Positions 4,535-56,883 of a stretch of 64,000 bases of DNA are shown piece after piece. Numbering within the stretch: the first letter of the stretch is position 1; each line of letters opens with the position of its first letter. Source of the stretch: an uncultured Eubacteriales bacterium. Its GTDB lineage: Bacteria > Bacillota > Clostridia > Oscillospirales > Acutalibacteraceae. The notes beneath the pieces were generated by a model that saw only the letters and a program-made list of their open reading frames with translations, was not told where the DNA came from and searched no databases. Location of the stretch: assembly GCA_934486915.1 (NCBI GenBank), contig CAKSRC010000003.1, positions 2,208 through 66,207 on the forward strand, in the 5' to 3' direction. Made by a program: the position numbers and the translations under genes.

Positions 4535-6766
4535 TTGATAAAATTAGCTAAATATCTAAAGCCTTATGTAATGTCGTTAATTTTTTGCGTACTGCTTTTA
4601 TTTGGTCAAGCGATGTGTGACTTAAGTCTCCCAAACTTGATGTCTGACATAGTAAATGTAGGTATCCAAGAAAGAGGCATAGAAAACCCTACACCCGAGA
4701 TAATGAGTGAAAAGGCCTATAATCTTATAACAATATTCATGTCAGAGGCGGATAAACAAATCTTTAGTAAAAATTATAGCTATATACAAACAGGGAAAGT
4801 AACCAACAATTATAATGAATATATTAAAAAGTACCCACTCTTGGAAGATGAGAGCATTTATATACTTAAGAAAGATAATAAAACTGATTTAGATGCGTTA
4901 AGCAAGCTTTATTCTAAAAGTACTATGGCTATGATTATCTCACTTAAATCTCTTGCATCAAATTTGGAAAATGGATCCCAGTTTAATACTGATGATGTAA
5001 CAAGCCTAAAGTTTACTGACATTTATTATCTAACTCCTATCTTCCAAAGCTTGCCTGCAGAAGCTATAGACAAATCTATAGAAGATGCTTCCAAGGTCGA
5101 TAGTGCATTAAGTAGACAAATTGCAACAGCCATTACCCAAAAATTCTACACTGAGGCCGGCGTTGATCTAGGCGCTCTTCAAAATAGGTATACCACTAAA
5201 ATAGGTATATATATGATTGTTTTAACATTATTGGGTGCTGCCGCCACAATGTCCGTAAGCTTCCTTTCCTCAAGAATATCAGCCGGAGTTTCAAAGGTAT
5301 TAAGGCGTGATATTTTTAGAAAAGTCGAAAGTTTCTCTAATAATGAATTTGATAAATTTTCCACTGCATCACTAATCACAAGAACCACCAATGACGTAAC
5401 CCAAGTACAAACTATTATAATGATGGGTATAAGGATGATAGTCTACGCTCCTATCATGGGTATAGGAGGAACAATACTTGCATTAGAAAAGTGTGCTTCT
5501 ATGGGTTGGATAATTGCACTTAACGTATTAGTAATATTGGGGATTATATCTATAGTCTTTTCTATTACAATGCCAAAGTTTAAATCCATCCAAAAACTAA
5601 TCGACAAATTAAACCTTGTCACAAGAGAACACTTAAGCGGAATGATGGTCATAAGGGCATTTGGAACTCAAAAATTTGAGGAAAATCGTTTTGATAATGC
5701 TAATAAAAACCTCACTGACGTCAATAAATTTGTTAATCGTATGATATGCTTATTAATGCCTGCTATGATGTTTCTCATGAATGCTATCAGCCTTTTGATT
5801 GTATGGGTAGGTTCTAACGAAATCTCAAAAGCCAATATGCAAGTCGGAGACATGATGGCATTTATGCAATACGCTATGCAGATTATAATATCCTTCTTAG
5901 TTATTTCGATGATATTTATTTTAGTTCCAAGAGCTGCCGTTTCAGCGGACAGAATTGCAGAGGTTTTATATACTGATATCGCTATAAAAGATGAAAAAAA
6001 ACCTATTAAATTGCCCGAAAACCATAGTGGCAAAATTGAGTTTAAAAATGTTTCCTTCAAATATGAAGGTGCGGATGAATATGTACTTGAAAATATCAGC
6101 TTTACGGCTTTACCCGGAAAGACAACAGCATTTATTGGGGCCACAGGTTCGGGAAAATCCACTCTTGTAAACCTTATCCCAAGATTTTACGATGTAACTG
6201 AAGGCGAAATTTTAATCGACAACATAAACATAAAATCTATCTCACAGCAAGAATTACACGATAATATAGGATATGTACCGCAAAAAGGCATACTATTCTC
6301 AGGAACAATTGCATCAAACATAGCTTATGGTAAAAAAGATGCAAATGAAATCGACATAACCGAAGCGGCAGAAGTCGCTCAAGCCTCTGAATTTATAGAA
6401 GGTTTTAAAGGAAAATATTATAGCGAAATATCGCAGGGCGGCTCTAATGTATCGGGCGGTCAAAAACAAAGGCTTTCTATTGCAAGAGCATTAATAAAAA
6501 AAGCTAAAGTCTATATATTTGACGATAGTTTTTCAGCTCTTGATTTCAAAACAGATGCTATGCTTAGAAAGGCACTTACAAAATACACTAAACATTCAAC
6601 AGTCTTTATAGTAGCTCAAAGAATAAGCACAATAATGAATGCAGAACAAATAATAGTCCTTGATGAAGGGAAAATAGTTGGTAAAGGAACTCATGAAGAG
6701 CTTCTTGAAACTTGTGATACTTATAAAGAAATTGCCTTATCTCAGCTTTCAAAGGAGGAATTGTAA
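4535..6766 (+). CDS. ABC exporter, fused permease/ATPase subunit (heterodimer partner 1) with a long extracytoplasmic loop after TM1
   Basis: 743 aa; Walker A GATGSGKST, signature VSGGQKQRLSIARAL, six-TM exporter domain. TTG start with RBS GGGGGAA. Confidence 0.9.
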   Translation: MIKLAKYLKPYVMSLIFCVLLLFGQAMCDLSLPNLMSDIVNVGIQERGIENPTPEIMSEKAYNLITIFMSEADKQIFSKNYSYIQTGKVTNNYNEYIKKYPLLEDESIYILKKDNKTDLDALSKLYSKSTMAMIISLKSLASNLENGSQFNTDDVTSLKFTDIYYLTPIFQSLPAEAIDKSIEDASKVDSALSRQIATAITQKFYTEAGVDLGALQNRYTTKIGIYMIVLTLLGAAATMSVSFLSSRISAGVSKVLRRDIFRKVESFSNNEFDKFSTASLITRTTNDVTQVQTIIMMGIRMIVYAPIMGIGGTILALEKCASMGWIIALNVLVILGIISIVFSITMPKFKSIQKLIDKLNLVTREHLSGMMVIRAFGTQKFEENRFDNANKNLTDVNKFVNRMICLLMPAMMFLMNAISLLIVWVGSNEISKANMQVGDMMAFMQYAMQIIISFLVISMIFILVPRAAVSADRIAEVLYTDIAIKDEKKPIKLPENHSGKIEFKNVSFKYEGADEYVLENISFTALPGKTTAFIGATGSGKSTLVNLIPRFYDVTEGEILIDNINIKSISQQELHDNIGYVPQKGILFSGTIASNIAYGKKDANEIDITEAAEVAQASEFIEGFKGKYYSEISQGGSNVSGGQKQRLSIARALIKKAKVYIFDDSFSALDFKTDAMLRKALTKYTKHSTVFIVAQRISTIMNAEQIIVLDEGKIVGKGTHEELLETCDTYKEIALSQLSKEEL

Positions 6767-12860: not shown

Positions 12861-13256
12861 CTAAACCGTAATTTCAATCCGGTTACCTTCTTCGTCTTGG
12901 ATGCAACTTTCGTAATACCCATCTCCGGTAGTTCTTGATGGACTTATCAGCTTATAACCGTCCTTAATTAATTTATCAGTAATCTCATCTACCTTTTCCT
13001 TACTTCCAACGCTAAATGCTATGTGAGAAAAGCCTACGGTTAATTGGACTTGAGCTGCATCCTTAATCTCTGGTCTCGTCATAATTTCAAGCCTTGCACC
13101 ACCCTCAAAATTTAAAAAATAAGACTTAAACCCCGTATTATAATTGCAATAAAGATTGCTTGATGTACACATAAAGTATTTTTCAAAAAATAGTCTTTGT
13201 TTCTCTAGGTCTCTTACATACATTGCTACATGCTCTATTCTCATATTAATACCCAA
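12861..13256 (-). CDS. VOC/glyoxalase family protein
   Basis: 131 aa; IEHVAMYVRDLE...HIAFSV...EGNRIEI beta-alpha-beta-beta-beta repeats. Start is TTG 13256 or ATG 13244. Confidence 0.75.
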   Translation of the reverse strand: MGINMRIEHVAMYVRDLEKQRLFFEKYFMCTSSNLYCNYNTGFKSYFLNFEGGARLEIMTRPEIKDAAQVQLTVGFSHIAFSVGSKEKVDEITDKLIKDGYKLISPSRTTGDGYYESCIQDEEGNRIEITV

Positions 13257-14995: not shown

Positions 14996-15024
14996 TTGAA
15001 AAAATGTAATTTATATGATATTAT
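14996..15024 (+). promoter_or_regulatory. sigma-A-type promoter driving structured leader + nrdR
   Basis: TTGAAA (14996-15001), 17-nt spacer, TATTAT (15019-15024). Confidence 0.55.
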
Positions 15025-15173
15025 TTAAATTGGTGTAATGTTCTGCTTTGCTTGCAAGAGGTACAAAGGGAGCATTAGCTCCTTAGAGGTTCAGTTGGAA
15101 ATCAGATCTCCCATTGAAACTATGTAACGGATCCCAACGTTTAAGAGGCGGGGCATCTGCGCTATGATTATAT
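15023..15173 (+). repeat. structured dispersed element, copy A (candidate leader RNA of nrdR; short variant)
   Basis: Shares with the other four copies: TTGCAAG, GGAGCATTAGCTCC hairpin, TTAG, GTTCAGTTGG...CCCATTGAAAC hairpin, GGA.C, a CCC..CG-TTAAGA-GGCGGGG hairpin, CATCTGC and GATTATAT. Confidence 0.85.
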
Positions 15174-39972: not shown

Positions 39973-40179
39973 ATGCCAAACGATAATTTTTTTAATAGAT
40001 TTTTAAAAGGTAATAAAAGCAAAGACAAGGATGCCATAAAATCCGATATAGATGTATATGATTTAGCCTCTACCTTGAGAAATGAGGGAAAAGGATATAT
40101 AAACTCAGACGTAAATGGCAGTTATACGGGGATAACAAATGATAATGAAAAACCCATACAAGATGCTGATGATCTTTAA
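39973..40179 (+). CDS. small hypothetical protein (68 aa)
   Basis: ATG 39973 preceded by RBS AAGGAG; MPNDNFFNRFLKGNK...PIQDADDL. No family recognised. Confidence 0.5.
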   Translation: MPNDNFFNRFLKGNKSKDKDAIKSDIDVYDLASTLRNEGKGYINSDVNGSYTGITNDNEKPIQDADDL

Positions 40180-40200
40180 AAAATATTATTTCACTTATAA

Positions 40201-40372
40201 ATTATAACTCAGATTTTCCCGCCTCTTAGGCGGCGGAATTCATTACATGGTTTGAGTGCAAAATTAGATCCCCACTGAAATTCTTAGGAGCTAACGCTCT
40301 TCTTGCACTGACTGCAATCCGTCGCGACCTCTGCTTCTTGCAAGCAAAGCAGAACGTTGCTCCGATTTAAAT
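40201..40372 (-). repeat. structured dispersed element, copy B (minus strand; long variant with 5' hairpin)
   Basis: Reverse complement reads ATTTAAATCGGAGCAACGTTCTGCTTTGCTTGCAAGAAGCAGAGGTCGCGACGGATTGCAGTCAGTGCAAGAAGAGCGTTAGCTCCTAAG..TTTCAGTGGGG...CCGCCGCCTAAGAGGCGGG..ATCTGAGTTATAAT. It is collinear with copies A and C-E. Confidence 0.85.
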
Positions 40373-40405
40373 AAATATTAAAGCTGTATAATATTTGACA
40401 TCTAT

Positions 40406-40437
40406 AAAAATTTAGCCACCATATTATATATGGTGGC
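40406..40437 (-). terminator. rho-independent terminator after clpC
   Basis: GCCACCAT / ATGGTGGC stem followed by TAAATTTTT on the minus strand. Confidence 0.75.
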
Positions 40438-45036: not shown

Positions 45037-45178
45037 TTAATGCTAACACTTTTTATACAACAAATCAAACCTCATTTTTGTTGATTGCATCAATTTATAT
45101 CTATTATACTCTATATTTCTTTATTTTACTTATAATTTCAATTATTTTTAAAAATTTCATTCTATATAATTTATAATT

Positions 45179-45324
45179 AGAGCAAAGTATGCGACAGATT
45201 GCAAGCAATGCAAATGGAGTGTTAGTTTCTCAGGGCTCCATTGGGAGATTATATTTCCACTGCTGAAATCCCGGATGAAACCCGCCGCCTTAAGTGGCGT
45301 GAAATATTTGCACTTTGATTATAT
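45179..45324 (+). repeat. structured dispersed element, copy C (upstream of ppa)
   Basis: AGCAAAGTATGCGACAGATTGCAAGCAATGCAAATGGAGTGTTAGTTTCTCAG...CTGAAATCCCGGATGAAACCCGCCGCCTTAAGTGGCG...ATATTTGCACTTTGATTATAT. Confidence 0.85.
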
Positions 45325-45416
45325 TAATTAACCCAAATTAATCTTCAAAAAAGTATAGAATTTTTATTTTAAAGTGATATAATTAATCTTATAATTATAT
45401 CAAAGGGGATTTTTAT

Positions 45417-47900: not shown

Positions 47901-48016
47901 AAAAATGTCTCCTAATAAAAATTATTATATATATGTCGTATTATATCATTAAAACGGATTTTTGCCAACTATTGCAGTATATTTTCACACAATAAACTTA
48001 ACAATGTAATTTTAAA

Positions 48017-48163
48017 GCAGAGTATGTGACAGATTTCAAATATTGCAAAGGGAGCGTTATCTCCTTAGGGTTTCAGCGGGTGGGGTTATATTTTCCCACT
48101 GAAATTTTGGACGGAACCCGTCGCCTTAAGAGGCGGGGGGCACATCTACACTTTGATTATATG
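48017..48163 (+). repeat. structured dispersed element, copy D (upstream of RodA/FtsW-family gene)
   Basis: AGCAGAGTATGTGACAGATTTCAAATATTGCAAAGGGAGCGTTATCTCCTTAGGGTTTCAGCGGGTGGGGTTATATTTTCCCACTGAAATTTTGGACGGAACCCGTCGCCTTAAGAGGCGGGGGGCACATCTACACTTTGATTATAT. Confidence 0.85.
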
Positions 48164-48249
48164 CCAAAAAGACAGTATTTGCTTGAGGTTAAAATAATTT
48201 TATAATATAATTATATGTACTTATTGAATTTTTGAGAGGAGGTTTTATA

Positions 48250-56105: not shown

Positions 56106-56675
56106 CTATCGTTTCAACCTGCGGGCTCCCTTTTTGCGGCTATGTTTTCCTTTATTTTGCAAAGCCTTATAAATAGATATATTAAATAAAGCCACCACCA
56201 CTCCAAGTAAGGCTCCCGCTACGACATCGCTTGGAAAATGAACAAATAAATACATCCTTGAGAAACCCATCACGACTGCAAATATGAAAGCTAAAATGCC
56301 TAATTTTTTATTCATAAAACAAATGACAGTCGCCGCCGCAAATGAAAGATATGTGTGGCCCGACGGGAAAGAAAATCCTCCCGGGTGCCTAATTAAAATA
56401 TCTACCTCTTTAAAAACATCACATGGTCTTGAACGTGCAATTAAGGGCTTTATCACAAAGCTCCCCAAGCACCCGGTAAGAGCTAAAGTTACAAAAAGCA
56501 ATACTCCATAACGTCTATACCTTTTTATTATCATCAAAACAATTGAAATTATAAACCATATCGCACCTAAATTTCCAAGTGATGTTATGTTTACCATTAT
56601 CTTATCCAATATTGGATTATGTAGCGACTGCAAATAAAATAAAATATCAAATTCTATGTCTTGAAAATTTTCCAT
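56106..56675 (-). CDS. PAP2 family phosphatase (undecaprenyl-diphosphatase-like)
   Basis: KPLIARSRP, FPSGHT, SRMYLFVHFPSDV. ATG 56675 is preferred because the longer ORF (to 56750) would be encoded by the complement of repeat copy E. Confidence 0.85.
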   Translation of the reverse strand: MENFQDIEFDILFYLQSLHNPILDKIMVNITSLGNLGAIWFIISIVLMIIKRYRRYGVLLFVTLALTGCLGSFVIKPLIARSRPCDVFKEVDILIRHPGGFSFPSGHTYLSFAAATVICFMNKKLGILAFIFAVVMGFSRMYLFVHFPSDVVAGALLGVVVALFNISIYKALQNKGKHSRKKGARRLKR

Positions 56676-56704
56676 TTGTATATATCCTTTCTTTTGCTTT
56701 TTTA

Positions 56705-56883
56705 ATTTAAATCGAGGGGCTTTCTTCTTTGCTTGCAAACAGCAGAGCATACGACAAATTGCAAGCAGCGCAAGTGGAACATTAGCTCTTTAGTGTTTCA
56801 GTGGAGGATTATGTTCCCCTCTGAAATCTTGGATGGAACCCGCCGCCTTAAGAGGCGATGGACATCTGTACTTTGATTATAAT
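56705..56883 (+). repeat. structured dispersed element, copy E (long variant; abuts sigK ribosome-binding site)
   Basis: ATTTAAATCGAGGGGCTTTCTTCTTTGCTTGCAAACAGCAGAGCATACGACAAATTGCAAGCAGCGCAAGTGGAACATTAGCTCTTTAGTGTTTCAGTGGAGG...CCCCTCTGAAATCTTGGATGGAACCCGCCGCCTTAAGAGGCG..ACATCTGTACTTTGATTATAAT. Confidence 0.85.

Follow-up and report, generated by a model that had tools for sequence, protein, structure and literature searches.

The stretch of 64,000 nucleotides (nt) of contig CAKSRC010000003.1 analysed here, called the window throughout, carries in its intergenic DNA five copies of a repeated element, lettered A to E in order of position. An earlier note on the element at copy D (48,014-48,163) had gathered the five and proposed that they are transcribed RNAs whose structure is under selection. 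Comparison of the copies with each other, and with the same positions in related genomes, makes another explanation likely: the five segments would be a lineage-specific, non-coding small interspersed repeat of ~180 bp, a non-autonomous mobile element of the same kind as BOX, bcr1 and the MITEs (transposable elements of the miniature inverted-repeat type), now inactive.

Five copies and their neighbours

Aligned with MAFFT, the five segments are collinear across ~150-180 columns. An nhmmer profile built from them returns exactly five places in the window, with E-values from 1e-37 to 1e-51, and these match the positions given in the earlier note. A rerun with a 10-sequence model confirmed the same five places, and no sixth copy reached significance with the nhmmer profile anywhere in the 64 kb. 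Together with one copy in a related metagenome-assembled genome (MAG), labeled L001, they form a genuine, diverged family of multi-hairpin repeats. The divergence was apparent to the eye, its extent less so: the identity between pairs of copies is 61-78%, where 70-75% had been estimated. All five window copies are intergenic, as is the copy of L001.

Copy A (15019/15023-15173, + strand; nhmmer E 1e-37, alignments) lies between the gene of an ABC-F ATPase on the - strand and nrdR on the + strand, both recognized by Pfam. It has both ends of the unit, with an internal deletion of 26 nt between two TTGCAAG repeats that removes the segment GCAGAG...GATT. Copy B (40200-40375, or 40200-40372 with the five-copy profile; - strand, E 1e-44 to 1e-46) sits between two convergent genes, a conserved open reading frame (ORF) of 68 amino acids (aa) on the + strand and clpC on the - strand (Pfam and gene table), downstream of the terminator-like hairpin of clpC at 40415-40437. 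It is full length (~175 nt), and its tail is degenerate (GTTATAATT).

Copy C (45179-45324, + strand; nhmmer, alignments) is found between ctsR (-) and ppa (+); it is without the first ~35 nt of the unit and also without ~25 nt of flank. Copy D (48014-48163, or 48014-48162 with the five-copy profile; + strand, E 1e-40), between the gene of a CmpB-like membrane protein (-) and a gene of the FtsW/RodA/SpoVE family, or SEDS gene (+; both by Pfam), likewise lacks the 5' ~35 nt. Copy E (56700/56705-56883, or 56705-56882 with the five-copy profile; + strand, E 1e-50) is full length (~180 nt) and occupies nearly the whole spacer between a PAP2 phosphatase gene (-) and sigK (+), its end standing directly at the ribosome-binding site (RBS) of sigK. 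The longest ORF that can be called for PAP2 (56106-56750, - strand) overlaps copy E by 45 nt; gene calls on identical contigs start the protein at 56675 (189 aa), and the overlap is thus an artefact of choosing the longest ORF.

As the earlier note had observed, four of the copies are in sense orientation upstream of a start codon. The distance from the end of the tail to that codon is 29 nt for A and nrdR, 93 nt for C and ppa, 69 nt for D and the ftsW/rodA-type gene, and 18 nt for E and sigK. Counting copy B and the L001 locus, the element is co-oriented with the transcription of an adjacent gene at 6 of 6 loci.

Anatomy of the full unit

The full unit is ~180 nt long, longer than the ~145-170 nt first described for a closing stem P1 and four hairpins, P2 to P5. 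Copies A, B and E, the copy of L001, and the variant of copy C found in the related sequence L033 all begin with ATTTAAATCGGAGCAACGTTCTGCTTTGCTTGCAAG, upstream of P1, and have in common ~40 nt of further 5' sequence. The unit is bounded by ATTTAAATCGGAG...CTTTGATTATAAT, and its order is the following: the 5' terminus ATTTAAATCGGAG, a long imperfect palindrome, P4, the GC-rich hairpin P5, and the 3' terminus CATCTGCACTTTGATTATAAT.

An inverted-repeat search and the minimum free energy (MFE) fold of copy B both match the 5' arm, imperfectly and in inverted orientation, to the P2-P3 region; in the full-length copies, the P2-P3 region is the 3' arm of the long palindrome that it forms with the 5' extension. 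In single-sequence folds of these copies, GCAGAG pairs with the upstream segment TTCTGC/CTTTGCTT, so that the closing stem P1 of the first description is ambiguous: it competes with a second pairing. The unit is best seen as a set of three palindromic modules (the long 5' palindrome, P4 and P5) with conserved termini.

An example is provided by copy D. Its P2, the degenerate TTTCA...TGCAA, and its P3, GGAG-CGTTAT-CTCC, occupy 48034-48064 on the + strand according to sequence and folds. They are followed on the same strand by P4, TTTCAGCGGGTGGGG-TTATATTT-TCCCACTGAAA, at 48071-48104; by P5, CCCGTCGCC-TTAAGA-GGCGGGGGG, at 48117-48140; and by the conserved 3' tail CACATCTACACTTTGATTATATG at 48141-48163, these three being read from the sequence. 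GxTTATAT, in the loop of P4, recurs in the tail as a direct repeat. The loop and 3' arm of P5, TTAAGAGGCG, form the best-conserved internal block of the family. The tail holds the 3' half of P1 (TCTAC) and the right terminus ...CTTTGATTATA(A)T.

At the two ends of the unit, ATTTAAATCGGAGC and the reverse complement of the tail, ATTATAATCAAAGT, agree at 9 of 14 positions (p ~0.005, in that register only). The inverted-repeat search found no long terminal inverted repeat (TIR). At locus C of L033 (1795-1830), 11 nt that are the exact reverse complement of the tail, TTATAATCAAA, stand ~25 nt beyond the element's 5' end, ATTTAAATCG. They could be an outer TIR left from an ancestral element that was longer, or what remains of another copy in inverted orientation. 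Of this sequence, the window retains TTTATAAT alone, at 45171-45178, since its local deletion begins there.

We also considered a small ORF within the element, and rejected it: in copy D, the frame of 14 codons that opens with ATG in the consensus meets a stop after its first codon, and it is not conserved.

Distribution, filled sites and empty sites

The family has a narrow distribution. Among representative genomes of 185,579 species, a pattern made of P5 and the tail matches one locus, that of L001, an uncultured Eubacteriales MAG from a Hadza gut; it matches nothing in the IMG/VR viral contigs or in the JGI metagenomes. A looser pattern gives 13 metagenome loci, all of them chance matches when scored by nhmmer, and no viral locus. 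Copy E has no match in plasmids or phages by blastn in its distant mode.

The copy of L001 lies downstream of a terminator-like hairpin of asnS, and it is the one copy that nhmmer finds in 21 kb around asnS (L047). In the DNA sampled, L001/L047 is the sole paralogue outside the window, and all other sequences are orthologous variants of the window copies. The AsnS protein of the L001 MAG belongs to a tight cluster of 98-100% identity, after which identity falls to 86%; the L001 contig comes from the same sample as the strain L028, whose DNA is ~94% identical to that of the window. Judging from these identities, the L001 MAG and the window belong to the same species complex. The family is found only in this one complex of gut metagenomes, with average nucleotide identities (ANI) of 93-100%. 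At 73-78% identity, the closest named relatives of the window proteins are from [Clostridium] leptum, Anaeromassilibacillus and Acutalibacteraceae, which makes the host an uncultured, Oscillospirales-like Clostridium of the gut.

The earlier note could assign the element to no known class of RNA, and a search of Rfam 15 agrees: over the whole window, nothing matches at the gathering score, and lowering the threshold to E<=10 for copies D, E and L001 brings up chance matches only, far below threshold. The families covered include riboswitches, T-box, 6S, SRP, RNase P, ribozymes, domains of group II introns and large RNAs of the HEARO/OLE type. The tRNA adjoining L001, which serves as a positive control, was detected. 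The repeat family is undescribed, a new family of a known kind, the small interspersed repeats.

We now turn to the positions of the copies in other genomes. The order PAP2-sigK is kept in the two nearest sister species, whose SigK proteins are 81% and 78% identical to that of the window. The spacer between the two genes is 225 nt long in the window, against 100 and 55 nt in the sister species, and the difference is due to the 180-nt element in the window. In ~96 kb of sister-species DNA (L020-L027, L049-L050), nhmmer finds no copy, against five in the 64 kb of the window. Given these empty sites, the origin or the expansion of the family postdates the split from those species.

Within the complex, at 93-96% ANI, the sites are filled: copy A is found at the orthologous position in L005, L007 and L008, copy C in L032 and L033, and copy E in L028. 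Every copy that was checked is at an orthologous site, which implies that the insertions predate the diversification of the complex. The descendants of a common ancestor thus share the element, at orthologous positions in lineages of 93-96% ANI.

Neutral decay of the orthologous copies

Orthologous copies can be compared to a neutral yardstick, here the four-fold degenerate sites of the flanking orthologous genes. The divergence of these sites from the window is 12.0% in L005, 17.6% in L008 and 18.8% in L028. Between the window and L028, copy E differs at 36 of 179 positions, or 20.1%, and by one indel; its flanks differ at 8 of 221 positions, or 3.6%. Within copy E, substitutions touch 8 of 54 stem columns (15%) and 30 of 126 other columns (24%), with no clear difference between the two. 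Seven stem pairs have changed: three are broken, three contain a G-T wobble, and one is a double change.

Besides drifting, the copies lose modules, and not the same ones. At locus A, where the flanks are ~95-97% identical between strains, the window has lost 26 nt of module 1, L005 and L007 have lost P4, and L008 has lost P5. At locus C, a 5' stretch that is gone from the window is still present in L033; L032 and L033 share a 70-nt deletion placed at P4, which takes away everything from its 3' arm through the tail, and L032 is also without the 5' part. The 135 nt that follow copy C in the window, which include a promoter-like site of ppa, are 100% identical between strains.

The deletions end in short internal direct repeats. 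At locus A, these are the two TTGCAAG (15050-15065); at locus C, they are GATTATAT in the loop of P4 and GATTATAT in the tail (45268-45275 and 45317-45324 in the window). The copies apparently decay mainly by replication slippage. The modules, namely the 5' palindrome, P4, and P5 with the tail, are independently present or absent in A, C, L005, L008, L032 and L033, as they are in BOX elements, and this pattern is best explained by deletions rather than by modular assembly. Divergence close to the four-fold-site rate, with the loss of different modules from different copies, is what neutral decay looks like.

Two other accounts of these differences were tried and set aside. Copies C and D, both short at the 5' end, might form a mobile subfamily, but L033 keeps the full 5' end at locus C, and the short copy C of the window is thus a local deletion that includes flank. 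Accelerated or hypervariable evolution of the element, or gene conversion, is unnecessary, given a four-fold divergence of 12-19%: it is the flanks that are constrained.

Inherited hairpins or selected structure

Are the hairpins maintained because the element acts as an RNA? This was the claim of the earlier note: the copies would be functional structured RNAs, either paralogous small RNAs (sRNAs) or a shared cis-regulatory leader, with a fold kept by selection on the transcribed strand. The stems P1 to P5, as first described, were tested on 10 distinct sequences, namely the five paralogues, L001 and four orthologous variants. In register, 82.2% of the cells are paired; when the 3' partners are slid by 1-3 columns, pairing falls to 34-50%. 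The hairpins were thus genuinely present in the ancestral sequence, and the copies have them by descent. Their reality in the consensus counts in favor of a structured RNA, as do the co-orientation of all six loci with an adjacent gene and the promoter-like sites that end at the 5' edges of A and C; without a match in Rfam, such an RNA would be new.

However, maintenance by selection should be visible beyond descent, and column shuffles do just as well as the alignment: they pair 82.8 +/- 0.7% of the cells, and 441 of the 500 shuffles are at least as high as the real value. The compensatory changes cited in favor of the stems, such as GCAGA/TCTGT in one copy against GCAAA/TTTGC in another, do exist, and they offer, with some wobble changes, a few examples of the expected kind; there are 3 double-change pairs in all, against 2.7 expected from shuffles. 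The covariation score is 0.119, against 0.124 in shuffles. RNAalifold returns no consensus structure, on either strand, for nine sequences including orthologous variants. Folded one at a time, the copies are a mere 1.3-2.4 standard deviations better than shuffles, and similarly so on both strands: the MFE z-scores are -1.6 for the + strand of E, -1.3 for its - strand, -2.4 for L001 and -2.3 for B.

The choice of strand was argued from G-U pairs. Mismatch cells do favor G-T over A-C, by 26:16, but this excess is weak: a single ancestral G-T pair accounts for several of the G-T cells, and a single-stranded DNA intermediate would tolerate G-T equally.

The orthologous copies add to these objections. 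They drift at the neutral rate, with no sign of purifying selection, and in some strains loci A and C have lost P4, P5 or the partner of P1, next to promoter DNA that remains 95-100% identical. The element is missing upstream of sigK in the sister species, the genes next to the copies are functionally unrelated, and no terminator-like site follows the element at A, C, D or E, the four copies scanned. A self-contained sRNA-like unit, with its own promoter and terminator, was rejected as well: promoter-like sites abut A and C, but at about the number that shuffles of such AT-rich DNA would give, and the terminator is missing. We regard a family of structured RNAs as very unlikely.

Relation to transcription

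As copies of a decaying repeat, some of the segments may still be transcribed with their neighbours. A scan for consensus promoters finds TTGAAA-17-TATTAT, with an upstream TG, at 14996-15024 (+ strand), ending 2 nt inside copy A. The site is conserved in L005, L007 and L008, and is probably the nrdR promoter. With a promoter at the edge of the copy, the nrdR mRNA would probably carry copy A as a decaying 5' leader. On the other hand, ppa probably has its promoter in TTTAAA-16-TATAAT at 45368-45395 (+ strand), which lies between copy C and the gene, in the stretch that is identical between strains; the SEDS gene probably has its own in TTGAGG-17-TATAAT at 48183-48211 (+ strand), between copy D and the gene. 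Both are downstream of the element; since the best sigma-A-like sites are on the 3' side of C and D, these copies are probably not in leaders. For copy E, which ends at the RBS, transcription of sigK must run through the element or start within it.

It was also claimed that the conserved tail contains an extended -10-like site. The -10 itself is good, with TATAAT in E and L001, but the TG in TTTGATTATAAT stands one base further from TATAAT than it should, and the family consensus, as we read it, has no -35 at 16-18 nt. The tail is not a convincing consensus promoter by these motifs. Readings of the tail, by eye, as a sigma-54, sigma-E or sigma-K promoter were rejected, since neither spacing nor consensus fits.

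These observations bear on a proposition that is compatible with a mobile origin, namely that the tail or the hairpins of the repeat now provide a promoter, a leader or a processing site to some of the neighbours. The strongest candidates are sigK, with copy E abutting its RBS, and nrdR, with copy A. Copy E replaces virtually the whole upstream spacer of sigK, and ends in a TATAAT without mismatch, 12 nt from the RBS; copy A has TTAAGA-16-TATGAT, made up of its P5 loop and its mutated tail. The tail is also the part best conserved between orthologs: the last 27 nt of E before the junction differ at 2 positions. There are precedents, since Correia elements create promoters and BOX modules alter downstream expression (PMC3049150). 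Against this stand the missing -35 at a workable distance and the misplaced TG, and the fact that the site specific to copy A is not conserved in L005 and L008, in which P5 is altered or deleted. For C and D, the better promoter-like sites are those downstream of the element, and the low difference in the tail of E is not statistically distinct from neutral, with 5 changes in the last 30 nt of the element. Such exaptation is unlikely.

A copy lying between a promoter and its gene, as at nrdR and probably sigK, or just after a terminator, as at clpC and asnS, is probably a co-transcribed passenger. Its hairpins could incidentally affect the mRNAs that carry it.

How the element may have moved

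The mobile-element explanation is supported by the dispersal of several copies over independent contexts, all with the same defined ends. Like MITEs, the element is shorter than ~400 bp, non-coding, multi-copy and intergenic, and it has filled and empty sites in related genomes. Assuming that it is indeed a non-autonomous element, an enzyme acting in trans would have recognized its termini, its hairpins or both, and would have inserted it into AT-rich intergenic DNA. At present, selection has apparently gone, and the copies drift at the neutral rate and lose modules by slippage between short direct repeats.

Several observations weigh against this explanation. The terminal inverted repeat is short and imperfect. 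The flanks, whose inspection the earlier note had suggested, have no target-site duplication (TSD) of consistent length at six junction pairs, where AT-rich sequence masks duplications of 2-3 nt. No transposase gene was found in the annotated regions of the ~64-kb window or in ~100 kb of loci from the same complex. No difference in copy number, the mark of a fresh insertion, is seen among the close strains sampled. The sister-species spacers are too diverged to be aligned base by base, so that the boundaries of the insertion are not base-exact. Finally, ~10 distinct sequences give the covariation tests low power against weak structural selection.

A missing TIR and a missing TSD, along with strand-specific hairpins, would be explained at once if the element derived from the IS200/IS605 type of insertion sequence (IS), either as a palindrome-associated element or as an orphan right end with the scaffold of a TnpB guide RNA, and moved as single-stranded DNA. 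The two ends of IS200/IS605 elements such as IS608 and ISDra2 carry hairpins similar to one another. Here, there are subterminal hairpins ~20 nt from each end and no clear TSD, and the conserved 3' end gives way to unrelated sequence. GC skew is negative on the + strand throughout the window (1-64000) and most genes are on the - strand, which puts the whole window on a single replichore, the - strand being the leading one; of the five copies, four have the same orientation on it. But this 4:1 bias is not significant, and the left (CTGCTT..AAGCAG) and right (CCGCC..GGCGG) hairpins are unrelated in sequence. No conserved target motif of 4-5 nt could be fixed at the left junction, and neither tnpA nor tnpB was seen in the ~64 kb and ~100 kb mentioned above. 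We give hardly any credence to this derivation.

A broader version would make the element a member of a class of multi-hairpin repeats, poor in TIRs and without TSDs, comparable to bcr1, that moved through a single-stranded DNA or RNA intermediate, with the hairpins serving for recognition by the enzyme, and whose copies E at sigK and A at nrdR were then co-opted as promoters or leaders of sporulation and housekeeping genes. It is suggested by the ancestral unit, which had conserved hairpins and strand-consistent ends, and by the region upstream of sigK, where the window lineage has essentially no DNA beyond the element. We consider this version distinctly unlikely.

Other features of the sampled loci

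Three observations concern neighbouring genes. The 68-aa ORF next to copy B (39973-40179, + strand) has no Pfam family; it lies 3' of citrate synthase, a position kept in the sister species (L049, L050). Between the ABC-F gene and spoIID, the window strain and L002/L006 have a glyoxalase-family gene (12861-13256, - strand), and L005, L007 and L008 have none at the same position. In L028 (4544-6213), an ORF of 43 codons, whose first 38 residues duplicate the start of spoIIID, lies ~1.2 kb upstream of the full spoIIID (5908-6213), with four small ORFs in between, one of them kinase-like (AAA_18); the region appears to be a partial duplication or an insertion beside this sporulation regulator.

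Comparison with known systems

In one sense, this is one more family beside the many small interspersed repeats already known. It would otherwise be mis-called a structured RNA or a riboswitch-like leader in MAGs of gut Oscillospirales-like Clostridia, and it provides an example in which inherited palindromes are told apart from selected RNA structure by means of orthologous copies and the four-fold-site rate. The copy at sigK indicates that the gene of a sporulation sigma factor can tolerate, or use, a repeat of 180 bp as its entire upstream spacer.

Classical MITEs, such as Correia/NEMIS, Nezha and Chunjie (PMC3184786, PMC10969869), are also shorter than 200 bp, non-coding, AT-rich, multi-copy and intergenic; their sites are filled in some species and empty in related ones, and a secondary structure is predicted for them. 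They differ in having clear TIRs of ~20-26 bp, TSDs and one long hairpin, where the window family has several hairpins, a TIR that matches at 9 of 14 positions at best, and no TSD.

The ERIC/IRU and REP/BIME repeats of enterobacteria resemble it as imperfect-palindrome intergenic repeats that are transcribed within mRNAs and have no transposase of their own. ERIC is one palindrome of 127 bp, widely conserved across genera. REPs are single GC-rich palindromes of 20-40 bp, often with a GTAG/CGTC tag and RAYT partners (PMC3733652). With ~180 nt, three different hairpin modules, and single, unclustered copies in one species complex, the window family differs from both.

A closer relative in kind is bcr1 of the Bacillus cereus group, a mobile repeat of ~155 bp with multiple stem-loops, whose mechanism of mobilisation is unknown (Okstad 2004, Klevan 2007, Kristoffersen 2011; PMC3184786). 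Both families are restricted to a Firmicute lineage, ~150-180 bp long, AT-rich and intergenic, and have several independent stem-loops instead of one long TIR hairpin. In both, structural stability varies among copies, with repeated loss of structure; bcr1 is often co-transcribed with neighbouring genes, as the window family probably is at some loci. The two have no sequence similarity, and bcr1 has flanking direct repeats of 5 bp and a non-conserved distribution among strains that points to recent mobility, whereas the copies checked here are orthologous and have no visible TSD. Compensatory changes have been reported for bcr1; in the window family, none are detected beyond shuffles.

The BOX, RUP and SPRITE repeats of pneumococcus also consist of modular, hairpin-forming sub-sequences, with copies that lack single modules (PMC3049150). 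The window family has no sequence similarity to them. The boxB units of BOX are tandemly variable, and its TIRs resemble ISSpn2, while those of RUP resemble IS630-Spn1 and come with TA duplications; for the window family, no partner IS is known, and the loss of modules resembles decay rather than a regular composite architecture. The likeness extends to intergenic sites, confinement to one species and its closest relatives, and past proliferation with little current movement. Croucher et al. classed BOX, RUP and SPRITE as parasitic on the grounds of lineage restriction, intergenic sites, hairpins, and slow or no movement (PMC3049150). Because it shares these properties, we liken the window family to such parasitic repeats rather than to host-functional elements, with possible effects on the genes that are co-transcribed with it.

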